In this document: piece by piece, positions 1 to 41,874 of the stretch
Layout of the letters: each line of letters starts with the position of its first letter
How positions within the stretch are numbered: position 1 is the first letter of the stretch
Assembly: GCF_051388935.1 (NCBI RefSeq)
Contig: NZ_JBPKBI010000009.1
Coordinates: 121,073-180,351, forward strand
DNA: 59,279 bases
DNA from: Yinghuangia sp. YIM S10712
GTDB lineage: Bacteria > Actinomycetota > Actinomycetes > Streptomycetales > Streptomycetaceae
Direction of reading: 5' to 3'
Made by a program: the position numbers and the translations under genes
The notes under the pieces: generated by a model
Told to the model about the DNA's origin: nothing
The model's database searches: none
The model's input: only the letters and a program-made list of their open reading frames with translations

Positions 1-468
1 CCGTCGCGGCTGCCCGGGAACTCCAGGACCGTGGCCGTCGGCGCGTCGTCCGACTTGTCCGCGGCCTGCTCCGGGCGGCTGCGCGGCACGACCGCCCGGA
101 CGACCTTGCCGTCCGGGACGGGTAGGACCTCGATTCCTTGCGACAGGCGCGCCACGATCCACAACCCGTATCCGGGTGGGCTGCGCCGCCGTGCGACGCC
201 GAGCCGGTCGGGCCCGGTGTCCTGCACGGCGACGTCGACGGAGTCGGGCTCCACCGCGACGCTCAGCCGACACGGGCCGGGGGCGTGTCGGCAGGCGTTC
301 GCGACGAGCTCGCCCACGACCATGAGCACGTCCCGGCAGATGTCCGGGCCCAGCGGCGGCTGCAGGGCCGCGTCGGTGAGGAACCGGCGTGCTTCGCGCC
401 GGGCACCGCGCACGGACCCCGCGCTACCGTCCAGCTCGACCACCAGGGTCGCGGGTGAATTCTCCATG
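1..468 (-). CDS. Anti-sigma factor / serine-protein kinase of the RsbW/SpoIIAB type (HATPase_c); its C-terminus runs off the window start
   Basis: My own translation of the minus strand from the ATG at 468 gives MENSPATLVVELDGSAGSVRGARREARRFLTDAALQPP...VGELVANACRHAPGP...VQDTGPD...GYGLWIVARLSQGIEV. The N-box and G-box (GYGLWIV) of GHKL anti-sigma kinases are present. It lies 32 nt downstream of the sigma gene on the same strand. It is missing from the ORF track because it has no stop codon inside the window. Confidence 0.7.
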
Positions 469-499
469 GGCACTCTGTATCTTCGCGCAAGCACGCAGC

Positions 500-1438
500 C
501 TACGCTGCGGCTTGGCGAAGCCGCTTCGCCCGGGGGGCGGCGTCCGACTCCAGTTGTTCGCGCAGCCGTGACAGCGTCGCACTGAGCAGCCGCGATATGT
601 GCATCTGCGAGACGCCGAGGCGCTCGCCGATCTCCCGCTGCGGCATGTCCTGCCAAAAGCGCATCTCCAAGATCATCTGCTCGCGTTCGGGAAGGGCGCT
701 GAGCAGGGGTTTCACCGATTCCCTGAAGTCGACGAGGTCGAGCTCGCGTTCTTCGTACGGCAGGAGATCGGCCAGCGGGGTCCGGTGGCGTCCGGAGCTG
801 TCGTTGCCGGCCGGCGCGGCGTCGATCGAGTCGACCATGTAGGCGCGCCCCGCCTCGCGGGCCTCGCGTACGTCCTTGACGTCCATGTCGAGGCACGCGG
901 CGATCTCCGACGCGGTCGGCTCGCGCGAGAGTTCCTGTTCGAGCTGGTGCACGGTGCGGGTGACCGCGAGGAAGCGCTCCTGGAGGGTGCGCGTGACGTG
1001 TACGCCCCACGACGTGTCGCGGAAGAACCGCTTGATCTCGCCGGAGATCGTGGGCAGTGCGAACGACGCGAACTCCGAGCCGCGGTCGACGTCGTAGCCG
1101 TCGATAGCCTTGAGCAGGCCGACGGTTCCGGTCTGGAAGATGTCGTCGTACGGTGCCCGCCGCCGCGCGAATCCGCGGGCGACGTAGTGCACGAGCGCGA
1201 TGTTGAGGTCCACGACAATCGCGCGCAACCGGCCGTACGCCTCGGTCTCGGGCCCGACTTCGCGCATACGGCGCAGCAACTGCTCGGTGAGTCGGCGGAC
1301 TTCGGTTTTGTCCAGGTTGCGCATGTCCTCGTGGCGCAGCGTTTCGAGGGATCGTTCCTCGGGGGAGAGCTGCGCGGCTGTGGACATCGGGACGGAGAGT
1401 TCGCGGGAAGGGACAACAGCGCTGGTGGGCGCGGACAT
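500..1438 (-). CDS. RNA polymerase sigma factor, SigB/SigF/SigG group (sigma-70 regions 2-4)
   Basis: ORF 500..1528 contains TGTVGLLKAIDGYDVDRGSEFASFALPTISGEIKRFFRD (region 2) and REQMILEMRFWQDMPQREIGERLGVSQMHISRL (region 4 HTH). The start was chosen at the internal ATG (MSAPTSAVV) at 1438, which is preceded by a GAGGAG ribosome-binding site. Confidence 0.85.
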   Translation of the reverse strand: MSAPTSAVVPSRELSVPMSTAAQLSPEERSLETLRHEDMRNLDKTEVRRLTEQLLRRMREVGPETEAYGRLRAIVVDLNIALVHYVARGFARRRAPYDDIFQTGTVGLLKAIDGYDVDRGSEFASFALPTISGEIKRFFRDTSWGVHVTRTLQERFLAVTRTVHQLEQELSREPTASEIAACLDMDVKDVREAREAGRAYMVDSIDAAPAGNDSSGRHRTPLADLLPYEERELDLVDFRESVKPLLSALPEREQMILEMRFWQDMPQREIGERLGVSQMHISRLLSATLSRLREQLESDAAPRAKRLRQAAA

Positions 1439-1660
1439 ATTTCGGCTCCTCAAGAGTCCGAAGACCCGCGGCGGTGGCGCCCGGTGCGGCCGTTCGGCCC
1501 CCGGCACCGGCGTGCGCACACGGCACACCGCGGGTGAGGGCTCCGCACATGCCCGGCTTCTTCAGGCGAGCGGTGCCCCGGCACGTGATGCGTGCCTTGG
1601 CGGGCGGCACACATACCGCCCTTTGAGTCGGGCCCGGCAGGCGGACTCGGCGACTCGACC

Positions 1661-1692
1661 GGTCACCTACCCACTTCCCCCACCTGAAACTC
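1661..1692 (-). promoter_or_regulatory. Candidate SigB-type promoter (GTTT-N14-GGGTAG) reading toward the sigma gene
   Basis: The minus strand reads GTTTCAGGTGGGGGAAGTGGGTAGGT. This matches the actinomycete SigB consensus GTTT-N14-16-GGGTAY. It sits about 225 nt upstream of the sigma start. Confidence 0.4.
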
Positions 1693-1824
1693 CGTCACGA
1701 GGGAAATTTTCCGGTCGAGTTCGCATGCCGTCCGCGTGAAGGGCCGGATACCGTCCGTGAGGACCGCGCCGGCGTGTGCCCGGCTCGCGGCGTGTCCCGC
1801 GAACTCGCCTGACGTGACACCGAG

Positions 1825-2271
1825 TCAGCGGCTGCCGCCGATACTCGGCGAGGTGGCGGTGCCGAGGAAGAACGTGTCGATACTGCGCACCGCATGCGTG
1901 AAGTCGTCGAAGTTGACCGGCTTGGTGATGTACGCGTTGCTGTGGTTCCGATACGCGGCGGCGACGTCTTCCGGCGCGCCCGACGTGGTCAGCACGACCG
2001 TCGGGATCATCTTGAAGTCGTCGTCGTTCTTCAGCACGCTCAGCAACTCGCGGCCGTTCATGCGCGGCATGTTGAGGTCCAGAAGGATCAGGTCCGGACG
2101 CGGCGCGTCGGGATCGCGCAGGCGTTCCAACGCCGCCACGCCGTCCGGGACCTGCGCGATACGCCGCGGGGTGAGGCTCTGCGTCAGCGCCTCCTCGATC
2201 AGCAGCGCGTCGGCGATGTCGTCCTCCACCAGCAGGATGTCGTATGGGCGGGCGGGCGGTGCGGCGGGCAT
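1825..2271 (-). CDS. Single-domain response regulator (CheY-like receiver), paralog A
   Basis: MPAAPPARPYDILLVEDDIADALLIEEAL...DLILLDLNMPRMNGRELL...VVLTTSGAPEDVAAAYRNHSNAYITKPVNFDDF carries the receiver acidic pocket (EDD, D in LLDLNMP) and the conserved K in ITKP. The start at 2271 overlaps the stop of the upstream ORF (TGATG). Confidence 0.8.
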   Translation of the reverse strand: MPAAPPARPYDILLVEDDIADALLIEEALTQSLTPRRIAQVPDGVAALERLRDPDAPRPDLILLDLNMPRMNGRELLSVLKNDDDFKMIPTVVLTTSGAPEDVAAAYRNHSNAYITKPVNFDDFTHAVRSIDTFFLGTATSPSIGGSR

Positions 2272-2651
2272 CAGTGTCTCCGCTCGGTGGAAGGGGTTTG
2301 TCCCGGGCGGTTGACACGTGCCGAGGCACCGGCCGCTGCCAGGCCCGGCCATCGGCGCCGGGCGCCCTGCCGGGTGATACGGCACGCCTGGCCGAGCTGC
2401 GGGTAGCCGGCCCCGGCGTGTGCGGCCCTCGCCGCGGTCTCGCTCATCGCCCGCTCCACCGCCCGTTGCAGGAAGGCGAGCGCGCGCAGTGTGGCGAGCT
2501 CGGAGTCCCGGCTGTGCGCGGACGGATCGGCGGGGTCCAGGGGCGGGAACGTCTGCAACACCAGGCGCGCGGCCAGTTCGGTGACCGCGGCGTGCGCTGC
2601 CGCGGCGACCTCTTCTTCGGCGTCGACGGGCGTGACGTGGGAGCCGGGCAT
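2271..2651 (-). CDS. Hypothetical 126-aa protein, helical, with a possible C-terminal HTH, translationally coupled to receiver A
   Basis: ORF MPGSHVTPVDAEEEVAAAAHAAVTELAARLV...GYPQLGQACRITRQGARRRW has a high-GC third-codon-position pattern. Its stop overlaps the start codon of the receiver gene. I recognise no family for it. Confidence 0.4.
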   Translation of the reverse strand: MPGSHVTPVDAEEEVAAAAHAAVTELAARLVLQTFPPLDPADPSAHSRDSELATLRALAFLQRAVERAMSETAARAAHAGAGYPQLGQACRITRQGARRRWPGLAAAGASARVNRPGQTPSTERRH

Positions 2652-2853
2652 TACGCAAGGTTAGGTCCCCCCGCCGCGACGAACAACGCCCGCGCGTCAG
2701 GCGCCTCGGCGCCGACTCCGCGGAGCGCCTTCGAAATCCCGCCGGGGCCGGGCGGCAGGGCACGGCCGCCGACCATGGCGGGTTCCCGCGCGCCGAGTGA
2801 CATTCCGCTGCCGAGAGGTGTCCACCGGGCATGGCCGATCCCACCGACGCGGC

Positions 2854-4095
2854 TTATTGGTCGGTGATCCGTCGCCCCGACGGGCGGCTTTCCGAGCCGA
2901 GCGGGCGCCAGGCCAGGTGCAGGACCGCGAGGTCGTCCGCGTGGCGGCCTCCGTCGAGCTGTTGGGCGGTGGTGACGAGGTGGTCGAGCAGCCGCTCGGG
3001 GTCGGGTTCGTCGGCGCGTTCGATCAGCTCGATCAGACCCGCGGTGCCCAGCCGCCCTCGGCCCGGGCCGACGTGGCCCTCGACGAGGCCGTCGGTGTAC
3101 AGCAACAGGGCGTCGGCGTTCGGCAGTTGCGTGGTCGTCGGACGCCACCCCCGATGGCCCGGCACGATGCCCAGCGCGATGCCCAGCGTCGTCTCCGGCT
3201 CGCGCACCGAACCGTTCGCGCACAGCAGCGGAGGGTGGTGGCCCGCGAGTGTGACCGTCACGACGTTCGCCGCCCGGTCGAGGACCAGCGTGCCGCAGGT
3301 CGCGAACATGTCGGTGCGCAACCGCTCGGCGACCAGCACCTCTTCGAGCAGACCCAGCAGTTCGACGCCGCGCAGTCCCGCCAACGTCAGGGCGCGCCAG
3401 GCGATCCGCAGCGACGCGCCGAGCGCCGCCTCGTCCGGGCCGTGCCCGCTCACGTCGCCGATCACCGCGTGCACCATGCCGTCGGGTGTCTGCACGACGT
3501 CGAGGAAGTCACCGCCGAGCAAGGCCCGCTGACGGCCCGGCAGATAGCGGCTCGTGGCGGTGACACCGGGGTCGGGCAGTAGCGGCTCGGGAAGCAGGCC
3601 GCGTTCGAGGCGCGCGTTCTCCTGCGCGTGGATCCGGTTCTCCAGCAGCTCGGCGTTGGCCTGCTCGGCCTGCTTGCGGTGCATCGCGTAGCGCAGGACC
3701 CGGGCCAGCAGGTCCGGTTCGACCTGCCCCTTGACCAGGTAGTCCTGCGCGCCGCCGGCCATGGCCTGGGTGCCGGCCTGCGACTCCGCGAGGCCGGTCA
3801 GCACCACCACGGCCGCCGACGGACACGCGCTCTGCACCGCACCGACCGCAGCGACGCCCGAGGCGTCGGGCAGGTGCAGGTCGAGCAGCACGATGTCGGG
3901 GCGTCCGCGCTGTATTTCGGTCACCGCGTCGGCCAGGGTCTTCTTCCACCGCAGCGTGTGGCCGAGCCGGGTGTCGGCAAGGAGTTCCTCCACGAGCAGG
4001 GCGTCGCCCGGGTCGTCCTCGATCAGCAGGATGCGGTACGGCGGTTCGGGCTCCGCGCCGGGCCGGGGCACCTGCGAGGTCTCGGGCGCCGTCAT
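2854..4095 (-). CDS. Response-regulator receiver fused to a PP2C (SpoIIE-type) serine phosphatase, RsbU/RsbY-like
   Basis: From the internal start MTAPETSQ at 4095 (GGAGG ribosome-binding site): receiver YRILLIEDDPGDALLVEELL...DIVLLDLHLPDASG, then PP2C motifs GGDFLDV, IGDVSGHG and LLLYTDGLVE. The start codon overlaps the stop of the upstream kinase gene (ATGA). Confidence 0.85.
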   Translation of the reverse strand: MTAPETSQVPRPGAEPEPPYRILLIEDDPGDALLVEELLADTRLGHTLRWKKTLADAVTEIQRGRPDIVLLDLHLPDASGVAAVGAVQSACPSAAVVVLTGLAESQAGTQAMAGGAQDYLVKGQVEPDLLARVLRYAMHRKQAEQANAELLENRIHAQENARLERGLLPEPLLPDPGVTATSRYLPGRQRALLGGDFLDVVQTPDGMVHAVIGDVSGHGPDEAALGASLRIAWRALTLAGLRGVELLGLLEEVLVAERLRTDMFATCGTLVLDRAANVVTVTLAGHHPPLLCANGSVREPETTLGIALGIVPGHRGWRPTTTQLPNADALLLYTDGLVEGHVGPGRGRLGTAGLIELIERADEPDPERLLDHLVTTAQQLDGGRHADDLAVLHLAWRPLGSESRPSGRRITDQ

Positions 4096-5720
4096 TCCTC
4101 CGAACCTCCGTCCGCGGGCAGCGTGAACGAGATGCTGGTGCCGGGGGAGTGGCCGGTGTCCACCGCGATGGTGCCGCCGTGGAACTCGACGATCTTCTTG
4201 CACATCGCGAGCCCGATCCCGGTGCCCGGGTACGCGTCCTTCGCGTGCAGGCGCTGGAAGATGACGAAAACCCGCTCGGCGTACTCGGGATCGATCCCGA
4301 TGCCGTTGTCGGTGACCGTGAACCGCCACAACGGGACGTGCTCGGCGGCCTGGGCGAGCTCGTCGGCCCCCGAGCCGTCGACTCGCTCGTCGTCGACCGC
4401 GGTGACCGACACGTGGATGCGCGGCGGGCTTTCGGGGTCGCGGAATTTGACCGCGTTGCCGAGCAGGTTCTGCCACAGCATGACCATCTGCGTCGGATCG
4501 GCGGTCAGGGTGGGCATCGGGTCGTGGGTGATGACCGCGCCGGACTCTTCCGCGGCGATGCTGAGATTGTCCACCGCGTCGGCGAAGGTGCGTTCCAGGT
4601 CCACCGTCTCATGTTCCCGCCGCGTGCGCCCGACGCGCGAGAAGGCGAGCAGGTCGTTGATGAGCCGCTGCATGCGGTTCGCCCCGTCGACCGCGAACTC
4701 GATGTACTGATCGGCGCGTTCGTCCAGGTTCCCGGCGTAACGCCGTTGCAGGAGCTGGCAGAAGCTGGCGACCTTGCGCAGAGGTTCCTGGAGATCGTGC
4801 GACGCGACGTACGCGAACTGCTCCAACTCGGCGTTGGAGCGCCGCAGATCCTCCGACTGCTCGTCGAGCCGCCGGCGGGCCAGGTCGGCGAAGACCAGTT
4901 CGTCGATCAGCCGCCGGCGCATCCCCTCGACGTCGTTGGCGAGCGCCCGCAGGTCGGCCGGGCCCGTGGTGTCGATGCCGTGGTCGAAGTCGCCGTCGCT
5001 GATCCGCCGTACGTCCGCCCCGAGCCGTTCCAGCGGCACCGTGACACCGCGCCGGAAGCCCTCGGAGACCAGCACCGCGAGCGCCACGATCACGACCGCG
5101 ATCGCCGCCAGGAGCAGGTCGCGCAGTTGCTGCGCGTCGTGCAGGTCCCCGGCCGCGTCTTGGCGGTTGTCCTGGAGGCGGTCCTGCAACGCGGCGGCGG
5201 ACGAGCGGACGGCGTCGAACGAGTCCTTGCCCGCGTTGAGCCGGTTCGTCGCCTCGGCGGTCTGCGTGCCGGCGCCTCCCGGGATGCCCGGCGCCGTCTC
5301 GACGATGGGCCGAGCGGTCGTCACCTGCCATGCCGCGACCTTGTCGAGCACGGCGTCGAGGTCGCCTTCGGCGGCCGTGCCGGCGATCAGCCCGCGCAGC
5401 ACGGCGACGCTGTCCTGCTCCTCGGCAACCCCGCGCCGATACGGTTCGAGGTAGTCGGGCCGACCGGCCAGTGCGTACCCCCGCACCCCTGTCTCCTGGT
5501 TCAACAGCGCCTTCTCCAGGCGCAGCGCCTCGATCAGCGCCGGCGACTCGCGGTCGGTCAGGCGGTCGGTCGCCTCCGAGGCGCGGTACAGCGCCCACGC
5601 GCCCAACGAGCCCAGGACCAGGAGCACGATGAGCGAGCCGACGACTCCGGCGGTCAGCCAGCGCCGAGTCGTCCATGCGGTCCGCCCGGACGGGGTGTCC
5701 TTCAAGCCGGGTGCGGCCAC
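4092..5720 (-). CDS. Sensor histidine kinase with N-terminal CHASE3 sensor, HAMP, HisKA and HATPase domains
   Basis: Transmembrane segment WLTAGVVGSLIVLLVLG is followed by a CHASE3-like region (LIEALRLEKALLNQETGVRGYALAGRPDYLEPYRRG). An H-box FAYVASHDLQEPLRKV and G-boxes DNGIGID and GTGIGLAMCKKIVEFHGG are present. The start is proposed at the GTG at 5720, preceded by GAAGGGAGG; the full ORF extends to 5837. Confidence 0.85.
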   Translation of the reverse strand: MAAPGLKDTPSGRTAWTTRRWLTAGVVGSLIVLLVLGSLGAWALYRASEATDRLTDRESPALIEALRLEKALLNQETGVRGYALAGRPDYLEPYRRGVAEEQDSVAVLRGLIAGTAAEGDLDAVLDKVAAWQVTTARPIVETAPGIPGGAGTQTAEATNRLNAGKDSFDAVRSSAAALQDRLQDNRQDAAGDLHDAQQLRDLLLAAIAVVIVALAVLVSEGFRRGVTVPLERLGADVRRISDGDFDHGIDTTGPADLRALANDVEGMRRRLIDELVFADLARRRLDEQSEDLRRSNAELEQFAYVASHDLQEPLRKVASFCQLLQRRYAGNLDERADQYIEFAVDGANRMQRLINDLLAFSRVGRTRREHETVDLERTFADAVDNLSIAAEESGAVITHDPMPTLTADPTQMVMLWQNLLGNAVKFRDPESPPRIHVSVTAVDDERVDGSGADELAQAAEHVPLWRFTVTDNGIGIDPEYAERVFVIFQRLHAKDAYPGTGIGLAMCKKIVEFHGGTIAVDTGHSPGTSISFTLPADGGSEE

Positions 5721-5946
5721 GCGGCCCTCCCTTCGACCGTTCCGCGTCGGCGACCACGGCCGGAGACGGCCGCCCGCAGGAGCCCGGCACACGATACATG
5801 CGCGCCTGACCACCACTGACAACGATTGTTGTCTCACGGCGCCGTGCGGCCTACTCTGACGGACGCATCGGCCGTCCCCCGCGACCGCGCGTCACGACGC
5901 GGCCCCCCGGCGTATCCGCGCCCCGCCCAGACCGGAGCCCACACTC

Positions 5947-6390
5947 ATGGCCGCGATCGCCGCCCGGCGCCCGTACGAGATCCTCCTCGTCGAGGACGAC
6001 CCGGCCGACGCCGTGCTGATCCAGGAAGCCCTGTGCGAGCAGTCGGCCCGCACGATCACCCGCGTTCCCGACGGTGTCGCCGCACTGGAACACCTGCGCG
6101 ACCCGGAGGTCGCGTGGCCCGACCTGATCGTGCTGGACCTCAACATGCCGCGCATGAGCGGCCGGGAACTTCTCAACGTGCTCAAGAACGACGACGAGCT
6201 CAAAGCCATCCCGGTCGTCGTCCTCACCACGTCGGGCGCCCCTGAGGACGTGGCGGCCGCGTACCGCAACCACAGCAACGCCTACATCACCAAGCCGGTC
6301 AACCTGGACGACTTCACCCACGCGGTCCGCAGCATCGACGCCTTCTTCCTGGAGACCGCGACGCTCCCGGGGCAGGACGACCACCGGTAG
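5947..6390 (+). CDS. Single-domain response regulator (CheY-like receiver), paralog B
   Basis: MAAIAARRPYEILLVEDDPADAVLIQEAL...DLIVLDLNMPRMSGRELL...VVLTTSGAPEDVAAAYRNHSNAYITKPVNLDDF is about 78% identical to the protein at 1825-2271. It is encoded on the opposite strand. Confidence 0.8.
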   Translation: MAAIAARRPYEILLVEDDPADAVLIQEALCEQSARTITRVPDGVAALEHLRDPEVAWPDLIVLDLNMPRMSGRELLNVLKNDDELKAIPVVVLTTSGAPEDVAAAYRNHSNAYITKPVNLDDFTHAVRSIDAFFLETATLPGQDDHR

Positions 6391-6406
6391 CCGGAAGCCC
6401 CGCCGC

Positions 6407-7288
6407 TCAGTGCTGGCGGATCACCGCCTCCTGGACCGCATGCGCGACCAGGACCCCTTCGTGGTCGTAGAACTCGCCGATGGCGAAGCCGCGGGCGTCC
6501 TGCGCGGTGGGGGAGGCCTGCGCGAACAGCAGCCACTCGTCGGCGCGGAAGGGCCGGTGGAACCACATCGCGTGGTCCAGCGACGCCATCTGGAGGTTCT
6601 GCGGATCGGTGACGTGGGGTGCCGCCGCGGTGCCGGCGAGGGTGAGATCGGACATGTACGCCATCGCACACACGTGCAGCAGCGGATCGTCCGGCAGTTG
6701 CTCCGCGGCCTTCATCCACACCCGCTGGTGCGGGACACCGTCGGTCAGGTGCGTGGCCGGCTGACGGTCCTGCGGCACGAAGCGCATGTCCATCACCAGA
6801 CGGGTCTGGGACGCCCCGTAGTGCTCGCGCTCCTTGCCCCGGCGCCCGCCGAACGGGTCCGGCAAGTCCTCGGGCCGCGGCACGTCCGGCATCGCGCGCT
6901 GGTGCTCGGTCGTGGTCTCGGGCACCTTGAACGAAGCCGACAAAGTGAAGATCGTCTCACCGTGCTGGACCGCCGTGACGCGGCGCGTGGTGAAGGAGCG
7001 TCCGTCGCGCACCCGGTCGACCAGGTAGATGATCGGCGACGTCGTCCGCCCGGGGCGTAGGAAGTAGCTGTGCAGCGAGTGAACCGGCCGCTCGGCGGTG
7101 ACCGTGCGCCCGGCGGCGACCAGCGCCTGCGCCGCGACCTGCCCGCCGAACGCGCGCAGCGGCGAACCGGCGTGGCACGTACCGCGGAAGATGTTCTGCT
7201 CGATCTCGTCGAGGCTGAGAAGATCGACGAAGCTTTCCGCCTGCCCGAAGTTGAACCGGGCCGTGCGGCCCTCTGGATGCTCGCTCAC
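6407..7288 (-). CDS. tesB: Acyl-CoA thioesterase II
   Basis: 293-aa ORF with a TesB-like double hot-dog fold. Recognised from FRGTCHAGSPLRAFGGQVAAQALVAAGRT, IYLVDRVRDGRSFTTRRVTAVQHGETIF and FAIGEFYDHEGVLVA. Confidence 0.85.
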   Translation of the reverse strand: MSEHPEGRTARFNFGQAESFVDLLSLDEIEQNIFRGTCHAGSPLRAFGGQVAAQALVAAGRTVTAERPVHSLHSYFLRPGRTTSPIIYLVDRVRDGRSFTTRRVTAVQHGETIFTLSASFKVPETTTEHQRAMPDVPRPEDLPDPFGGRRGKEREHYGASQTRLVMDMRFVPQDRQPATHLTDGVPHQRVWMKAAEQLPDDPLLHVCAMAYMSDLTLAGTAAAPHVTDPQNLQMASLDHAMWFHRPFRADEWLLFAQASPTAQDARGFAIGEFYDHEGVLVAHAVQEAVIRQH

Positions 7289-8565
7289 CGGGTCATCGTG
7301 TCAGACACGCCGCCGAGCGGCGACGCCCGCCGAACCCCGCCCCCGCCCGCGACCACACCGACGAGCTCCCCGTACAACCGCGACGAGGCCGAGCCGAACC
7401 GGAGCGGTCGACGCAAGTCCCGCTCGCCGACGCCCGGTCGGAAACGTCCGAAGCCCCGGCCACGCGCGCCCGAGTCACGGGCGACGACGGCGAAGCAGTG
7501 GGGCGCGTCACAGGATCGGGAGGACGCGATGCTGCGTGCAGCAAGGCGGCGGTCGCGTCGGGAACACCGAAGCCCGGAGGCGATGAGCGGCCTGCGAGTG
7601 CGGTTGTGAGCGCTGAGGCGCGCTATCCCGACGGCATGGTCGCGCGGGCACGACGGGCCCGTCGGGACAGACGGGGCTGACGTCGGGAAGCCCGCGTGAC
7701 CCCGGCGGGGTGCCCACCGCAGACAGGCTCCCAGGAGCGGAATCGGCCGCGGACGACTGTTGTCCGCGGTTTCCTCCGTCGCACCGCGGCCCACGATCCG
7801 GAACAGGCGTCGCACGTCCCGGCACGGTGTGGGCGTCGGCCTCGTCATGTGTGGCTGTCATGTCGCCGAGCGGCGGTGGTGGCGCCGGCTCGTCACTCGA
7901 TGTCTCCGCCGTGGTTCGCCGGGCCCCGCTGGTCGTCGGGATCGCCGGGGGTTCGGGGGCGGGTTGGGATCGCCGGGGTGCTCGGGTCGTGGGTCGGACC
8001 TCCGGGATCGCTGGCAGTGTTCGGGGGGTGCGTCGGGGTCTTCGGAACCTCCGGGGGTACACGGGTCCCGGTTCGGGTTGCTCACGGGGCGAACGCACTT
8101 GCAGGCTCTGCGGTCTCCGCGGCGCAGTGACGGCCCGGTGCCGGTCCGGCGCAGCAGGCGCACACCTGCCCGCGCGCCGCGAGACCGGACGCATTCACCG
8201 CAGACCCGGTCTTTGCACCCGGGGGCTGTTCCACGGATTCCGCAGCGTGTGGTGTGTTCGGGGCCGGACTTCCGTCGCGGCGTACCCGACGCGCGCATCG
8301 CGAAGGGCTCGGGCCGGTGTGCGGCGTGTTCGGGATCGGCCTCGTCGCGACGGTCGGCGCGGTCACCGCAACTCCATCGGCCCGGGGCACGTCCATGCGG
8401 TTTGCGTCTTGGCGTCCATGCGGCCGGAGTCGGACTCCGCCGGTCTCCGACGGCAGCGGTGTGTGGTCGCTAACCTGATCCGCGGCAAGGGGCCGGTGAG
8501 CTTGTCGGTGCGGGCGGGCGACGTGCAACTCCGGTAAATGAAGCGGTAAGCGGGGAGGTTGTCGC

Positions 8566-10005
8566 GTGTTCGGCATCATCAGGCCGTGTCGGCATTCGCT
8601 GGCTGAGGGACTGCGCGACTCCTGGATGGCGCACTTGTGCGGGCTGTGCCTCGCGCTGCGTGACGACCACGGGCACGCCGCACGCGTCGCCACCAATTAC
8701 GACGGGCTGATCATCTCTGTGCTCGTCGAGGCGCAGAACGCAACCGAGGCGGTGAAAAGCGGGCGGCGCAAGGCGGGGCCCTGTGCCCTGCGCGGCATGC
8801 GTACCGCCGAGGTCGCGCGGGGCGAAGGCGCCCGTCTCGCCGCCGCTGTCTCGCTCGTCCTGGCCGCAGCGAAGATGCGGGACCATGTCGAGGACCAGGA
8901 CGGGGTGTTCGCCCGCAAGCCGGTCGCGGGAGGCGCGCGCAGGGTCGCCGCTCGATGGGCCCGGCAGGGCGACAGCACCGGGCATGCGGTCGGTTTCGAC
9001 ACGGCGGTGCTGACGGAGGCCGTGGGCCGCCAAGGCGAGATCGAAGCTCTCGCCGGGCCCGGGACGTCGGTGCTCGTGGTCACCGAGCCCACCGAGACCG
9101 CGACCGCTGCCGCCTTCGCCCACACCGCGACCCTCGCCGGACGCCCGGGGAACGCCGAACCACTCGCCGAGGCAGGCCGCCTCTTCGGCCGGCTTGCGCA
9201 TCTCCTCGACGCGGTCGAGGACATCTGGGAGGACCGCGCGACGGGCGCGTGGAACCCGCTGCTCGCCACCGGGACCGGGCCGGAAGAGGCTTACCGGCTG
9301 TGCCGCGACGCCGCGCACGGCATACGCCTGGCCCTGAAGGACGTCGCGTTCACCGACGCTCGCCTCGCGCACGTGCTTCTGGTGCACGAGGTCGACCAGG
9401 CCGTCGAACGGACCTTCCAGCACGCGGGCTTCCCCGTGAAGTCGCGTCGGCACGGGTGTTCGTCGCACGGCAAATCACATGGCAAGTCCCTGGACACGGC
9501 GGTCGGAACGGGCGGCTTGCCCGCCCCGGGCGCGACAGCGGCGCCCGACGTGCTTCCGCTCGGCGGCCCGATCACCGACGGACGGGCCTTCGCCGACCTG
9601 TCGGGCGGTCCCGCAGGACAGACACCCGCGCCCCTCGAATCGCACTCGCCGCAGAGCCCGCCCGGATGGCAGCCGCCCCCGGCCGACCCCGGCAACCCCT
9701 TCGGCCCCGGGCGCAACCCGAACTGGGATCCCATACACCCCGGGGGCCCCGGTGGTCCCGGGGACCCCGGCCGACCGCCCGGGCGCAGGTACAACCCGCT
9801 GATCGCGTGCCTGATGTGGGTCGGCCTGTGCTGCACCTGCCAGGCGTGCTGCCGCGACGAGTACACCGACCCGTGTACGGGCCGGCAGCGCCAAGGCTGC
9901 TGCAACGACTGCGACGCCGATTGCTGTAGCTGCTGCGACTGCTGCCAGTGCTGCGGCGAAGACGGCGGCTGCTGCGACGGCTGCGGCTGCGACTGCAGTT
10001 GCTGA
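8566..10005 (+). CDS. Hypothetical protein: conserved Cys-motif N-domain (MFGIIRPCRH...HLCGLCLAL), Gly/Pro-rich linker and a hyper-cysteine C-terminal tail
   Basis: GTG start preceded by GGGGAGG. The N-terminal ~290 aa look globular, with C8, C25 and C28. Residues ~350-410 are Pro/Gly rich (PGGPGGPGDPGRPPG). The last 66 aa are LIACLMWVGLCCTCQACC...CCNDCDADCCSCCDCCQCCGEDGGCCDGCGCDCSC, with 24 Cys. The N-domain may belong to the DUF5685-like family; this is from memory and unverified. Confidence 0.7.
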   Translation: MFGIIRPCRHSLAEGLRDSWMAHLCGLCLALRDDHGHAARVATNYDGLIISVLVEAQNATEAVKSGRRKAGPCALRGMRTAEVARGEGARLAAAVSLVLAAAKMRDHVEDQDGVFARKPVAGGARRVAARWARQGDSTGHAVGFDTAVLTEAVGRQGEIEALAGPGTSVLVVTEPTETATAAAFAHTATLAGRPGNAEPLAEAGRLFGRLAHLLDAVEDIWEDRATGAWNPLLATGTGPEEAYRLCRDAAHGIRLALKDVAFTDARLAHVLLVHEVDQAVERTFQHAGFPVKSRRHGCSSHGKSHGKSLDTAVGTGGLPAPGATAAPDVLPLGGPITDGRAFADLSGGPAGQTPAPLESHSPQSPPGWQPPPADPGNPFGPGRNPNWDPIHPGGPGGPGDPGRPPGRRYNPLIACLMWVGLCCTCQACCRDEYTDPCTGRQRQGCCNDCDADCCSCCDCCQCCGEDGGCCDGCGCDCSC

Positions 10006-12711: not shown

Positions 12712-12894
12712 CTGCGCGCCCGTCCTTTCGTGCGACCTTGCCGGTGCCGCGCGCCCGGACCATCAGGCCGGGTTCCACGCGTTCGGCCCCCACCGTACGC
12801 CGGTCCCGCCGCAGGCCCGGAACCCCCATCACCCGTGCGGGGACGCCTCCGCCCCGGTCATTCGAACATGCGTACGGTTGCGCTCACGGCGCCC

Positions 12895-15741
12895 TCACCC
12901 CGTAGTACGTCCGAACTCCGACGCCACGATTTGATTGGATGCCACGGCCGCGGCCATCGCGTCCGTCCCGCCCAACACCGCACGCCCGAATTCGACGAGC
13001 GGGCGTTCGGACCACCCAGGCGCTGCCGGGTACGCGCGCGCACCGGCCAGCGCGGACGCGCCCGCCCGCAGCATCGGATTGGCCCCCTGCGCGGCCTCGT
13101 CGGGCGCGTACGGCGACAGGACCCGACCGCTTTGAGCCAGCTGTGAACGCCACCGCGCCGAAGTGAGGGTGGTCAGCAGGTCCACGGCCGCCGGAATGTC
13201 GCGGCACGTCGAGGAGACCACCAGAGCCGTGCCGCCGAGGCCCACCGCACCCGGCCGGTCGGGAGCGTGCCCGGGCAGCGGGAACGCGTCGAGCTGCGCG
13301 GCGAGTGCGGGCGCGGCCGAGGTCACGGCCGTGTAGAGGGCCTCGCTGCCGATCACCGACGCCGTCTGCCCACGCGTGAAGAGCTCGTCGGGTCGAAGGG
13401 CGGCCTCAGTCGCGTCGCTCACCTCAGGGGCGTACTGCTGCAACTGCCGGAAGAACCGCACCGCGTCCGCCGAACCGGGCAGGTCGAAGGCGCCACGCCA
13501 GGGGTCGTCCAGGTTGTGTCCCTCCGGGAACGCGATCGCCCCGCCGGCCTCCCACATGAACGAGGCCAGCACCGGCCATGCCCGGCCGGGCAGGTAGACG
13601 CTGCGGAACGCCGGGTTCGGCGCGAAGTGTGTGCGGAGGTGTTCGAGGCCGTCCACCCATTCCTCGCGGCTACGCGGCAGCGGCACCCCGGCCGCCGCGT
13701 ACATGCCCCGGTGGCACAGGACGACGGGCACCGACGCGGTCAACGGGAGGCCGTAGACGGCCCCCTGGATCGTCACCGCGGAACGCACGGTCGGCAGCCA
13801 GGTGTCGGTCTCCAAGCGGTCCTGGTAATCCGCCAGGTTCTTTATACGTCGTGCGGCCACATGGCCGGCGAGGGAAAGGAGGTCGACCTCGTAGACGTCG
13901 GGGATCACGTCCTCGCGGTTGAACGCGTTCACCAACTCCTGGCCCAGCGCCTGCTGCGAGCGCAGTTCCACGTCGTACTTGACCGACGTCCCCAAAGCCG
14001 CGGGCAACTCGTCGGACAGCAGCGCGATTTGCCGGGCGTTCCAGGTGCCGTCGCGGAGCCACGCGCGTATCCGGCCCGGCGGGGTGTTGCCGGCAGGGGC
14101 GGGTGCGGAGCCGGGGTCCGTGCGCTTGGACTTTCCCGAGCCGCCGCTGCCCCACAGCACCGCGCCGGTCACGGCTCCGGCGAGCACCGCGCCGCCCGCG
14201 GCGACCCACCGGAGGAAGCGGCGCCTTTCTGCTCCCGACCGGATGATGCGCGCCGACGGGCCCGCCGGGCCCGGCTGCCCCGAGCGCGGGGGCTCGTCCG
14301 CGGGAGGTTCGGACGGGTGGGGAGGCGTGCTCGCGGGCCCGGCCGCATGGGGCGGCGCCGCGCCCGGCACCGGCGCCGCCGGGCGGCCGGGAAGGTCGGT
14401 TTCGCCGGGAGCGGCGGCGGCGGACGCGCGGGGCGGCAACGGCGCGTCGTCGTCGACGAGTTCCGCCTCGACAATCTGACGCTCGACGGTTCCGCGTTCC
14501 GGGCCGTCGGTCGGTGCGTCGGGCGCGGGGCCCGGCCCCGACCGGAAGGCCGAGCCGGGGGTGGACTCGTCCTCGGCGGCGCCCGGTCCGGCCGCCGACG
14601 TGCGCGATCGTCCCGGGCCGGCATCCGCTGCGGAGGAGTCCGGAGCGGATGCCGGCGGGGGGACGAACGGCCGCGCCGTCGTCCGGTCGTCCGCCGTACG
14701 CCTGCGCCGTCGCCCCGAACCGCGGCCGGTTTCCGAGGCGTACGCCCCTGCCTGGCTCGACCCGGGGGTCGCCTCGCCCGCGCGCCCGGAGTCACCGCCC
14801 TGGTGAGCCCCACCCGCCGGCGTACCGCTGCCCGGTCCCCCGGGCATGCCGCCGGACTGTGCCCAGATCGTTGCGGCGCGCTGGGCGACTTCGGCGGCCA
14901 CGCGTGGCGGAAGCCAGCCCGGACCGTCGAGTTCGCTGACGGTGGCGGCCTTGATCTGCGCGGCCGTCGGCCGGTCGGCCGGGTCCTTGGCCAGGCATGC
15001 CACGGCCAACTGCCCCAGCCATGCCGGGAGTCCGCCGAGATCAGGCTTCCCGCGCAGGATCCGTTCGCCGACTCCGGCGTCGCTGTCGTCTCCGAACGGC
15101 CCGGTGCCGCGCGCCGCGTGCACCAGCACAGTGCCGAGCGAGAAGACGTCCGCCGCGAACCCCACGTCGCGACCGGCGAGTTGCTCGGGGGCGCGGAACG
15201 CCGGTGACGTCAGCGTGGTCCCGATCAGCACCCCGTCCTCCTCGACCGACGGTCCGTCAGGGCTGCGGGCCACTCCCAGATCGACGATGCGCGGCCCGTC
15301 GGGTGCGAGGGCGACACCGGACGGGCTGAGCCGACCGTGTGTCAGGTCCTGTGCGTGCAGGGCTTCCAGGCCGGCGGCGAGACCCGCGGCGAGTGTGCGT
15401 ACGGTCTCCGCGGGCAGCGGGCCGAATTTCTCGACGGCCTCCGCGAGTGAGGGCCCGGGAGCGTAGGCGGCGGCGATCCACAGCACCGGGCCGCTTGTCG
15501 CAGCGTCGACGACGGGCACCACGAACGGGCAGTCGACGCGGTGCGCCGCGGCGACCTCGCGGGCGAAACGCGCGCGGAAGGCCGTGTCCCGGGCGGCGCT
15601 GTCGCGCACCGCCTTGACGACGGCCGGGCGTCCCTCGGGCGAAGCGCCCAAGAAGACCTGCGCGGTGGTGCCTTGGCCGAGCAGGGCAGCCAGCCGGTAG
15701 CCGCCGATTTGGCGCGGGTCGTCCTTGTCCAGGGGCCGCAT
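12895..15741 (-). CDS. Ser/Thr protein kinase with one transmembrane segment and a C-terminal extracytoplasmic solute-binding-protein-like domain
   Basis: Hanks kinase motifs are present (AVVKAV, HAQDLTHGRLSPSGV, VDLGVA, SPAFRAPEQ). A long Pro/Ala-rich linker follows, then transmembrane segment FLRWVAAGGAVLAGAVTGAVLWG. The ~400-aa C-terminus resembles ABC family-1 solute-binding proteins. Confidence 0.85.
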   Translation of the reverse strand: MRPLDKDDPRQIGGYRLAALLGQGTTAQVFLGASPEGRPAVVKAVRDSAARDTAFRARFAREVAAAHRVDCPFVVPVVDAATSGPVLWIAAAYAPGPSLAEAVEKFGPLPAETVRTLAAGLAAGLEALHAQDLTHGRLSPSGVALAPDGPRIVDLGVARSPDGPSVEEDGVLIGTTLTSPAFRAPEQLAGRDVGFAADVFSLGTVLVHAARGTGPFGDDSDAGVGERILRGKPDLGGLPAWLGQLAVACLAKDPADRPTAAQIKAATVSELDGPGWLPPRVAAEVAQRAATIWAQSGGMPGGPGSGTPAGGAHQGGDSGRAGEATPGSSQAGAYASETGRGSGRRRRRTADDRTTARPFVPPPASAPDSSAADAGPGRSRTSAAGPGAAEDESTPGSAFRSGPGPAPDAPTDGPERGTVERQIVEAELVDDDAPLPPRASAAAAPGETDLPGRPAAPVPGAAPPHAAGPASTPPHPSEPPADEPPRSGQPGPAGPSARIIRSGAERRRFLRWVAAGGAVLAGAVTGAVLWGSGGSGKSKRTDPGSAPAPAGNTPPGRIRAWLRDGTWNARQIALLSDELPAALGTSVKYDVELRSQQALGQELVNAFNREDVIPDVYEVDLLSLAGHVAARRIKNLADYQDRLETDTWLPTVRSAVTIQGAVYGLPLTASVPVVLCHRGMYAAAGVPLPRSREEWVDGLEHLRTHFAPNPAFRSVYLPGRAWPVLASFMWEAGGAIAFPEGHNLDDPWRGAFDLPGSADAVRFFRQLQQYAPEVSDATEAALRPDELFTRGQTASVIGSEALYTAVTSAAPALAAQLDAFPLPGHAPDRPGAVGLGGTALVVSSTCRDIPAAVDLLTTLTSARWRSQLAQSGRVLSPYAPDEAAQGANPMLRAGASALAGARAYPAAPGWSERPLVEFGRAVLGGTDAMAAAVASNQIVASEFGRTTG

Positions 15742-16549
15742 CGCACTCCTCGTCCATGCCCTGCCCGTGACGCTCGTGCGTCACCGCCTGCGGGGTGGGC
15801 TGCCATCGTGGGAACGGCAACGGCTCGTGATGATGTGCCTGTTCCACCGGATGGGCAGGCAGTCTGCCAGAAATTCGGGGGTGTTCAGGCCGCCGATCCC
15901 TGGTCCCGCCGGGGGTCCGGGCGCGTTTTCACCAGGATTGCGGCGGCTTCGCGCACCCGCCGGCACGACGTTCGGCCGGGGGTTGTACGGCCAAGTACCC
16001 GCTTGTGTCGGGGCGTTCGAGGAAGCACTGCCGGGCAGGTAATCGGGCGTCTTGCCAACGGCGCTGCGGCAGGCGGACGTTGACCGTCATTGCCGAGCGC
16101 TTGGAGTCGGCGTCTGCTCCGGGGGTGGTGCCCCGTCCGCCCTGTCACGATGCGTTCCCGAACGGCATCCATCCGTCAAGTGGTGGTCCCGTGGTTCGCG
16201 GCCGGCCGCTCGCACCGTGGCCACCCATGGTCCTCGCGCGAACACGGAGACACGCGAACACGGAGACAAGGGACCCGTCCGAGCGGGAGACAGGCCCGAT
16301 CTGTCGGCAGGCGCGTAAGTCTCCCGATAGGAAGCCCGACCTGCGGGCAAGGTTCCGCTTGGAGCTCCGAGGGGAAGGTCTCGATCGCGTTACATTACTC
16401 GCTGGTAGGTTACTGGCCAGTCTCCTCTTGAGAGGATCACCGGCGCGAGGGACATATCCGAAAACGGAACGCTCCTGCGGTGATCGGACTCGGTCGACTG
16501 CCGACGAGTCGGTGCAGGCGACGCCGTGGCGAGTGAAGGGAGATCGGTA

Positions 16550-18207: not shown

Positions 18208-18666
18208 ATGGCCGAACGCGGGGCCATCACCGACATCGCCGTGCGCGCACTCGCGCCACAGCGCGGGTCGGTCAAGGCAGCGCGGGATTTCGGGCGCGAC
18301 ACGCTGGCGCGTTGGGGCGTCGCCGAGTTGTTCGACGATCTCTCGCTCGTGGTCTCCGAGCTGGTCACCAATGCCCTCTGCCACGGTGTCGGCGGGCCGC
18401 GGACGGACGACGAGTGCGACGGCCGCCCCGCAGGGCATCCGGTGCAACTCGCGTTGCTGCGCAAGGGTTCCCGGGTGATGTGCGCGGTCCAGGATCCGGG
18501 AGACGGCCTGCCGACGCCGCAGGATGCCGGCGACGGCGCCGAGACCGGCCGCGGGCTGCATATCGTCGAATGCTTCAGCAGTTCATGGGGCTGGTTTCCG
18601 TTGGCCGGTGTCGCCGGGCGCGGCGGGAAAGTCGTCTGGGCGATGTTCCAGGTGCCCGGGCAATAG
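18208..18666 (+). CDS. ATP-binding protein (anti-sigma-kinase-like HATPase) of a WhiJ-type cluster
   Basis: MAERGAITDIAVRALAPQRGSVKAARDFGRDTLARWGV...DLSLVVSELVTNALCHGVGG...GRGLHIVECFSSSWGW shows an SpoIIAB/RsbW-like N-box and G-box. The start was chosen at ATG 18208; the ORF extends upstream to 17941. Confidence 0.65.
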   Translation: MAERGAITDIAVRALAPQRGSVKAARDFGRDTLARWGVAELFDDLSLVVSELVTNALCHGVGGPRTDDECDGRPAGHPVQLALLRKGSRVMCAVQDPGDGLPTPQDAGDGAETGRGLHIVECFSSSWGWFPLAGVAGRGGKVVWAMFQVPGQ

Positions 18667-41493: not shown

Positions 41494-41874
41494 GTGAATC
41501 TTCAGGTGACCACCGAGGACCGCGAAGGCTGGACCGTGCTTTTCGTCTCCGGGGAGGTCGACTTCGCCGTCGTCCCGGAGTTGGGGGAGAACGTCAGACG
41601 GGCGGTGGCCCAAGGGCGTCACCACTTGATCCTGGAGCTGACCGACGTCGTCTTCTGCGACTCGACCGGGATCGGCGCGCTGGTCGGGGCCCGGCGCCTG
41701 CTGCGCTCGTGCTCGGGCCAGTTGCGGCTGGTGATGCCGCCCAACAAGGAGCACCACGTCAACCGCGTGTTCACCGCACTCGGGCTGCGTCGCCTGTTCG
41801 ACGTGCACCCCACACTCGGCGAGGCCCTCGCCGACGGCCCCGGCGACCGGCAGGTCGAGGCGATCACCGCCTGA
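41494..41874 (+). CDS. Anti-sigma factor antagonist (STAS domain, SpoIIAA/RsbV-like)
   Basis: VNLQVTTEDREGWTVLFVSGEVDFAVVPELGENV...LILELTDVVFCDSTGIGALVGA. The phosphorylatable Ser is in DSTGIG. GTG start at 41494. Confidence 0.8.
   Translation: MNLQVTTEDREGWTVLFVSGEVDFAVVPELGENVRRAVAQGRHHLILELTDVVFCDSTGIGALVGARRLLRSCSGQLRLVMPPNKEHHVNRVFTALGLRRLFDVHPTLGEALADGPGDRQVEAITA

Follow-up and report, generated by a model that had tools for sequence, protein, structure and literature searches.

A CHASE3 kinase/receiver-PP2C cassette beside a SigB-type partner-switching operon in Yinghuangia sp. YIM S10712

Introduction

A cycle of sigma factor, anti-sigma kinase, STAS protein, and PP2C phosphatase is the established partner-switching mechanism of the SigB/SigF/SigG family. 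Here, we describe a locus of this kind from Yinghuangia sp. YIM S10712. It lies at the beginning of a 59,279-nucleotide stretch of contig NZ_JBPKBI010000009.1 (positions 121,073 to 180,351 of the forward strand), which is called the window below and has a G+C content of ~72%. The locus consists of two separable units: a cassette encoding a CHASE3 histidine kinase, a receiver-PP2C phosphatase, and free receiver proteins, and a sigma factor operon directly downstream of it. The two units probably work together, with the cassette serving as a second input to the sigma partner switch.

The closest described system comes from Mycobacterium smegmatis. There, the non-hybrid CHASE3 kinase RsfS phosphorylates the REC-PP2C protein RsfR on Asp74 (PMC10950880). 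RsfR acts as a phosphatase on the STAS protein RsfB and becomes less active when it is phosphorylated (PMC10950880). The RsfSR pair responds to respiratory inhibition, salt, and low pH, and its genes are arranged as rsfR-rsfS-MSMEG_6128 beside rsfB-rsbW2 (PMC10950880). The product of the third gene, MSMEG_6128, is not phosphorylated by RsfS and is not needed for SigF control (PMC10950880). In Bacillus cereus, the corresponding kinase RsbK, which RsbM methylates, is a hybrid enzyme containing a GAF domain and a C-terminal receiver. Phosphorylation activates its partner phosphatase RsbY, whereas it inhibits RsfR. The sigma-B factor of Bacillus subtilis has two phosphatase inputs, namely the environmental branch through RsbU and the energy branch through the PAS-containing RsbP.

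Results

The Sigma Operon and the Adjacent STAS Gene

The reading frames of the window were chosen by third-position GC, and domains were assigned by Pfam and NCBIfam profile searches of the window proteins (Table 1). An earlier note on this DNA, made from the letters alone, had listed the genes of the locus. All of them are present on the strands it stated, with strong Pfam and NCBIfam support, and CHASE3, HisKA, REC, PP2C, sigma-70 regions 2 and 4, and HATPase_c were each confirmed by the profile searches. The sigma factor start was set according to the annotation of an identical metagenome-assembled genome (MAG) contig, L091, and to the conserved ATGTCCGCG start. The start of the kinase was likewise taken from the annotation of an identical MAG contig. 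An exact database look-up of the receiver-PP2C protein gave no match, and look-ups of receiver B and of the 126-amino-acid (aa) protein led only to short MAG contigs.

The sigma factor matched the SigBFG model TIGR02980 with 242.3 bits (cut-off 234.35), and regions 2, 3, and 4 are all present. The anti-sigma kinase gene begins 33 bp past the sigma stop codon, and an N-box (VGELVANACRH) and a G2-like motif (GYGLWIV) could be read from its sequence. By its domain and position, as a small HATPase_c_2 protein encoded right after its sigma gene, the predicted kinase fits the RsbW/SpoIIAB type.

The left end of the window falls within this gene, and the continuation was found on the MAG contig L082, reached via the partial sigma match P0003. 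This contig is 99.74% identical to window 1-1156 over an overlap of 1,156 bp and extends leftward from it. The full anti-sigma kinase encoded in L082 has 228 aa (690-1376) and is 100% identical over the shared 155 aa. Directly after it lies a gene for a STAS protein of 149 aa (1409-1858; Pfam STAS 1.6e-19), whose phosphorylatable Ser motif MDSTGL (DSTG) is conserved in six orthologues. It is followed by a gene for a 900-aa ANTAR-PAS-PAS-SpoIIE/PP2C protein (1851-4553; ANTAR 1.5e-18, SpoIIE 2.2e-48), which sits ~1.4-4.1 kb to the left of window position 1. Taking window and L082 together, the STAS and HATPase_c_2 genes are found 2-3 genes downstream of the kinase/receiver-PP2C operon, and the sigma operon is predicted to be a complete four-gene partner-switching unit composed of sigma, anti-sigma, STAS, and ANTAR-PAS-PP2C.

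The earlier note had stated that no STAS gene is adjacent. This is correct for the window, in which the only STAS open reading frame (ORF) lies at ~41494-41871 (+), and incorrect for the genome, as shown by L082. The gene seemed to be missing because the window starts inside the anti-sigma gene. The same note regarded the substrate of the PP2C as unclear; a candidate is now at hand in the operon STAS protein, encoded just past the window edge on the 99.7%-identical contig. The STAS ORF near 41494 is real and has no bearing on the question of the receiver-PP2C substrate.

Two further observations were made on the proteins of this operon. The last ~95 aa of the anti-sigma kinase form a charged tail of low complexity (window 3-80 (-); L082:1085-1376). 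Most of its orthologues do not have the tail: four consist of 131 aa, that of Yinghuangia sp. ASG 101 of 152 aa, and that of Y. seranimata of 163 aa. The fusion of ANTAR, an RNA-binding antitermination domain, to a partner-switching phosphatase is unusual, and a literature search found no paper on an ANTAR-PP2C fusion in an anti-sigma context.

The Cassette as a Separable Unit

The stretch from receiver B to the anti-sigma gene is collinear between the window and four other Yinghuangia assemblies, YIM S09857 (L088) and the SRA-derived L084, L085, and L090. In all four, the STAS and ANTAR-PAS-PP2C genes come next, and the outer flanks are unlike those of the window. Yinghuangia sp. ASG 101 (L083), with a sigma factor 82% identical to that of the window, has the sigma operon and is missing exactly window 1762-6404. 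Its flanks are common with the window, with the thioesterase gene on one side and DUF6328, SpoIIE, and HATPase_c_2 genes on the other. In a blastn comparison, L083 8768-9681 aligned with window 7318-6405 (87%) and L083 9686-11394 with window 1761-74 (83%), and the gap between the two homology blocks in ASG 101 was 4 bp. Y. seranimata also has the four-gene sigma operon without the cassette.

The cassette is optional, because both ASG 101 and Y. seranimata possess the sigma operon without it, and we describe it as an optional second input to a self-sufficient partner-switching operon. The earlier note had spoken of a compact island. Synteny instead divides the locus into two units that appear separable, a kinase cassette of 4.6 kb and a sigma operon that has a promoter of its own.

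Between the genomes compared, the cassette proteins and the sigma factor show about the same degree of divergence, a pattern that fits common descent followed by loss in ASG 101. Insertion of the cassette, rather than its loss in ASG 101, is also conceivable. Neither direct repeats nor mobile-element features were seen at the cassette junctions.

Table 1. Features at the left end of the window (positions in the window; strand and supporting evidence where given).
Feature	Position	Strand	Evidence
Anti-sigma serine kinase, RsbW/SpoIIAB-like (predicted)	3..467	-	HATPase_c_2 8.7e-14; N-terminal 155 aa, gene exits window
Sigma factor, SigB/SigF/SigG family, 312 aa	500..1438	-	Sigma70 r2/r3/r4; TIGR02980
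5' leader of sigma operon, conserved and structured	1439..1662 (core 1533-1626)	-	Alignment, folds
SigB-type promoter GTTTCAGG-N-GGGTAG	1667..1690	-	Motif match, conserved upstream position
Receiver A, Rcp1/RcpA-type single-domain, 148 aa	1825..2271	-	Response_reg 1.8e-19
126-aa protein	2271..2651	-	36 homologues
Receiver-PP2C phosphatase, 413 aa, RsfR/RsbY-like	2854..4095	-	Response_reg 2.8e-15, SpoIIE 2.8e-41
CHASE3-HAMP-HisKA-HATPase_c histidine kinase, 542 aa, non-hybrid, RsfS-like	4092..5720	-	CHASE3 2.9e-19
Receiver B, Rcp1-type single-domain, 147 aa	5947..6390	+	Response_reg 3.7e-21
4,643-bp cassette (receiver B, kinase, receiver-PP2C, 126-aa protein, receiver A)	1762..6404		blastn vs ASG 101
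Acyl-CoA thioesterase gene flanking region	6407..7288		

The Kinase and the Receiver-PP2C Phosphatase

The kinase has two transmembrane-like segments (~22-44 and 200-220), one on either side of CHASE3. Its H-box SHDLQEPL (His308) and its N, G1, and G2 boxes are all intact, and Pfam searches showed neither a GAF nor a receiver domain in it. The H-box stretch reads SHDLQEPLR and appears to be of the type found in phytochrome-class kinases. As read directly from the sequence, the stop codon of the kinase gene and the ATG of the receiver-PP2C gene overlap as ATGA.

The conservation of functional residues in the receiver-PP2C protein was measured in an alignment with 120 homologues. The REC residues D27, D28, D72, T100, and K122 were at least 98% conserved, and so were the PP2C motifs GGDFLD (194-199), DVSGHG (213-218), TDG (334-336), and DD (387-388). 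The earlier note had pointed out that a PP2C domain deprived of its metal-binding Asp residues would be a pseudo-phosphatase; these residues are in place. With catalytic and phospho-acceptor residues intact in the alignment, the phosphatase is predicted to be competent. The top PDB matches were the P. aeruginosa REC-PP2C protein 3eq2 (1e-14) and the PP2C domain of Rv1364c (3ke6).

Comparison with RsfSR and RsbKY

The earlier note had compared the pair with B. cereus RsbK/RsbY as an input to a SigB-type island. The kind of pair was recognised properly, since in both cases a CHASE3 kinase feeds, or is predicted to feed, a receiver-PP2C and the two-component genes stand beside the sigma operon. 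M. smegmatis RsfS/RsfR (MSMEG_6130/6131), which we compared by layout only, through Rhodococcus and Nocardia loci, is the closest characterised system. It is the better comparator because GAF and fused receiver domains are absent from the window kinase and none of the nine cluster genes encodes a methyltransferase.

The likeness to RsfSR extends over several features. Both kinases are non-hybrid membrane proteins with two transmembrane helices around CHASE3, and both have a receiver-PP2C partner, with Asp72 as the acceptor here and Asp74 in RsfR. In each case, the kinase and the receiver-PP2C are encoded in one operon that contains an extra receiver gene, STAS and HATPase_c_2 genes are located next door, the host is an actinobacterium, and the sigma factor belongs to the SigB/F/G family. 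The kinase without a receiver of its own, which had been presented as a departure from precedent, has the same architecture in M. smegmatis (PMC10950880).

The two systems also differ. Here, the kinase gene precedes the phosphatase gene, opposite to the order of rsfR-rsfS. The locus encodes two single-domain receivers and the 126-aa protein, whereas M. smegmatis has one extra protein, described as a receiver plus helix-turn-helix (HTH). Sigma and anti-sigma genes belong to the cluster itself here, and a second phosphatase, ANTAR-PAS-PP2C, is encoded in the operon. Among the sampled loci, the nearest homologues with the rsfR-like order were 50-56% identical in the phosphatase and ~43-50% identical in the kinase.

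Distribution of the Module in Actinobacteria

A genome scan with the receiver-PP2C sequence yielded 80 loci, which fell into two layouts, with the exception of L079, where the phosphatase stands alone. Type 1 comprises 23 loci with 57-62% identity from Streptomyces, Actinacidiphila, and Kitasatospora, in which a receiver and the 126-aa gene are divergent from the kinase, which is followed by the receiver-PP2C. Type 2 comprises 56 loci (kinase detected in 53) with 50-56% identity from Streptomyces, Nocardia, Rhodococcus, and others, in the order receiver-PP2C, kinase, receiver, an arrangement also reported for rsfR-rsfS-MSMEG_6128 of M. smegmatis (PMC10950880). A STAS, HATPase_c_2, or SigB-like gene was found within 10 kb in 37 of the 56 type 2 loci, and in Rhodococcus the STAS/kinase pair is directly adjacent.

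Both layouts include a single receiver along with the kinase. In Rhodococcus L040, the one locus inspected for this, the receiver is a single-domain protein of 146 aa that is translationally coupled to the kinase. A free receiver, which the earlier note regarded as supplied instead of a kinase-borne one, is therefore not special to this locus. One receiver would be an ancestral member of the module family, and only its doubling seems to be specific to Yinghuangia.

The type 2 receiver is 77-95% identical across Streptomyces, Rhodococcus, and Nocardia (L023, L040, L045, L057, L062, and L071; ~12800-13300). Such an identity seems high for proteins of three different genera and may point to a strongly constrained interaction. 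In 13 of the 80 loci, a SigB-like sigma gene was seen no more than ~5 kb from the kinase and phosphatase genes, in at least three arrangements (L019:12045-13470; L030, L037, L044, L048, L054, and L057-L061 at ~15350-16350; L046 and L051 at ~8390-9180). The module appears to have become linked to SigB-type sigma genes repeatedly and independently.

Receivers A and B and the 126-aa Protein

Receiver A has the acceptor Asp65 together with Thr95 and Lys117. Receiver B, whose gene is divergent from that of the kinase, has the acceptor Asp64 with Thr and Lys in place. The two proteins of the window are 74% identical to each other. Across the window and the four other Yinghuangia loci, identity was 82-84% from A to A, 78-79% from B to B, and 68-76% from A to B. 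By these values, the two receivers represent separately conserved lineages, both maintained, so that the duplication would predate these Yinghuangia species. Over their full length, both receivers matched 5te9 (4e-32) and RcpA/Rcp1 (~1e-30) in the PDB. They resemble these phytochrome-associated regulators in sequence and differ from them in setting: a phytochrome or photosensory domain is absent here, and the partner kinase senses via CHASE3.

The stop codon of the 126-aa ORF overlaps the start of the receiver A gene as TGATG, as read directly. We collected 36 homologues of this protein, none of which had a Pfam or NCBIfam match, and the motif GAGYPQLGxAxxxxRQGARRRWPG is invariant across them. 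The AlphaFold model (pLDDT 85) consists of two long helices and a three-helix short end. A Foldseek search of it against the PDB gave no significant fold match (best E = 2), with weak LuxR/sigma-r4-like HTH similarity only. The protein was considered as a possible Hpt and rejected, as there is no invariant His among the 20 invariant columns of the 36 homologues and no Hpt-like fold match. The gene stands beside the receiver in 22 of the 23 type 1 loci and is missing from the four other collinear Yinghuangia assemblies. We also noticed that a homologue in YIM S09857 is encoded away from any kinase module (L092:10001-10405), and that in the database entry P0278 (198 aa) the C-terminal part of this family is joined to a receiver domain.

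The Promoter and the Structured Leader of the Sigma Operon

The motif GTTT-N13-16-GGGTA, the SigB-type promoter consensus, has its sole match in the 59-kb window at 1668-1690(-), ~250 nt upstream of the sigma start. The same motif occurs at -221 to -258 in six of six related operons, including two that have no cassette, with a variable spacer. The promoter is probably autoregulatory. The motif was not found before the kinase, receiver B, or 126-aa genes. A scan of positions 1-7400 showed no sigma-70-like promoter and no convincing terminator, and at 72% GC such a scan is of little value.

Between the promoter and the sigma ATG lies a leader of ~230 nt. In a ~290-nt alignment of seven operons that spans promoter, leader, and start codon, the mean column identity was 80%, rising to 88% in the core (1533-1626), while the sigma proteins of the same operons are 64-82% identical. 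RNAalifold and single-sequence folding (z = -2.4) agree in predicting three hairpins in the leader and a further one, immediately before the ATG, in which the GGAG ribosome-binding site is sequestered. The core contains 28 pairs (98.8% paired), three of which show compensatory changes; this covariation, drawn from six distinct sequences, is suggestive. A small ORF in the leader was also considered and is argued against by one-nucleotide indels within the conserved core.

Rfam gave no match in window 1-7400 at E <= 1. A covariance model built on the leader matched only at the seven Yinghuangia operons in 1.8 Mb of related loci. A metagenome pattern scan for the leader returned 0 matches. A looser metagenome scan returned 85 stretches, and the covariance model, applied to 80 of these, showed no true instance (best E 0.4, off the pattern site).

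ANTAR-target RNA has been described as a pair of stem-loops separated by 2-25 nt, both of which have a hexaloop with A1 and G4 (PMC8164766). Hairpin 1 of the leader can form a hexaloop, ACAGGU in five operons (A1 and G4 present) and AUGUGU in two, and the linker to hairpin 2 is 5 nt. Hairpin 2 has a loop of 5 or 7 nt and does not show A1/G4. The likeness of the leader to such a dual-hairpin target is partial.

Other Genes of the Region

Further partner-switching-type genes were seen in the neighbourhood. A second HATPase_c_2 ORF of the window is located at ~18250-18660 (+), and a GAF-SpoIIE phosphatase gene with a convergent HATPase_c_2 kinase gene lies ~6 kb past the window edge (L082:7309-9630).

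Discussion

We consider it fairly probable that the two units of this locus work together and that the cassette acts as a second input to the sigma partner switch. In such an arrangement, the anti-sigma kinase would sequester the sigma factor and phosphorylate the DSTG serine of the STAS protein. Removal of this phosphate by a PP2C would leave the STAS protein free to capture the anti-sigma kinase, and the sigma factor would be released. We infer that the CHASE3 kinase phosphorylates Asp72 of the receiver-PP2C and in this way sets its activity toward the phosphorylated STAS protein, in a direction that may be inhibitory, as in RsfR, or activating, as in RsbY. Phosphorylation of the STAS protein would be reversed by two phosphatases, the ANTAR-PAS-PP2C of the operon and the receiver-PP2C of the cassette. 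The free receivers most plausibly compete for the phosphoryl groups of the kinase or tune the kinase itself, a sink or modulator being our best guess.

The cassette may add an envelope- or respiration-linked input beside the cytoplasmic PAS-PP2C, comparable to the pair of RsbU and RsbP in B. subtilis. As in that species, two PP2Cs have different sensory N-termini and one of them contains PAS; their convergence on one STAS protein is predicted here. The differences from B. subtilis are that the first phosphatase would be set by Asp phosphorylation and not by an RsbT/stressosome partner, and that the PAS phosphatase has an N-terminal ANTAR domain.

A smaller but appreciable chance is left to the alternative that the kinase cassette is an independent module which happens to stand beside the sigma operon, with the substrate of its PP2C, another STAS protein or a non-STAS phosphoprotein, encoded elsewhere. 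Several facts speak for it and weigh against joint action of the two units. Of the 23 type 1 loci, which are the closest relatives outside Yinghuangia, 22 lack STAS, anti-sigma, and sigma genes within 10 kb, and the same is true of Streptacidiphilus L087. Compared with ASG 101, the cassette forms a clean indel. The sigma operon owns a promoter and a PP2C, and since ASG 101 and Y. seranimata have this operon and no cassette, the cassette is dispensable for it. The promoter and 386 bp separate receiver A from the sigma gene, no SigB-type promoter precedes the cassette, and the two units are probably separate transcripts. Orphan STAS and HATPase_c_2 genes are numerous in actinomycetes, as exemplified by those at ~18250 and ~41494 of the window and at L082 7309-9630. 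In addition, the proposed role of the free receivers as a phosphate sink is without precedent, because MSMEG_6128 is neither phosphorylated by RsfS nor needed for SigF control.

On the other side, the adjacency of cassette and sigma operon is kept in five Yinghuangia genomes and in two genomic contexts, while the sigma factor has diverged to 71% identity. The wider family is strongly associated with partner-switching genes, and both RsfR and RsbY act on a neighbouring STAS protein. The case for an independent module is weakened because of this conserved adjacency, the family-wide association, and the experimental precedent, and we keep to the cassette as a second input.

The earlier note had proposed a branched or multi-step phosphorelay, in which the free receivers would be steps in a His-Asp-His-Asp pathway from the kinase to the receiver-PP2C. 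Two conserved receivers with intact Asp, Thr, and Lys do flank the kinase operon, and translational coupling links one of them to the 126-aa protein. Nevertheless, we find this very improbable. There is no Hpt domain in any gene of the cluster, and the 126-aa protein, with neither an invariant His nor a significant fold match for its model, does not supply one. The kinase is translationally coupled directly to the receiver-PP2C, and in RsfSR the transfer is direct and the extra receiver protein is not phosphorylated (PMC10950880). Hardly any credence can be given to the receiver-PP2C as an RssB-like adaptor or pseudo-phosphatase acting on sigma stability or availability by binding: 3eq2 is its best solved-structure match and RR_RssB_Pseudo its top NCBIfam match, but the latter reaches 49.2 bits against a cut-off of 700, the PP2C metal-binding motifs are intact, and the associated sigma factor belongs to the SigB/F/G family under partner switching and not to RpoS.

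With the STAS gene located just off the window, the apparent anomaly of a phosphatase without a substrate is removed, and the locus takes its place in the RsfSR/RsbKY class of two-component inputs to SigB/SigF partner switches. The design is already known from Mycobacterium and B. cereus and would not greatly surprise a specialist. A triad made up of a CHASE3 kinase, a receiver-PP2C, and an Rcp1-type receiver is found widely in Streptomycetaceae, Nocardia, and Rhodococcus, where two gene orders occur. The Yinghuangia triad stands directly upstream of a complete sigma operon with a second phosphatase. ASG 101, with the same flanks and no cassette, provides a natural deletion control for comparison with strains that have it, for example YIM S09857.

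Among the elements described here, only the conserved leader and the ANTAR-PAS-PP2C protein could open up something new. It is conceivable, though we regard it as a rather improbable proposal, that the sigma operon is under three controls: the kinase acting via the receiver-PP2C, PAS sensing, and the ANTAR domain binding the leader of its own operon. If this is true, one protein would be both a partner-switch phosphatase and an RNA-binding regulator of sigma expression.

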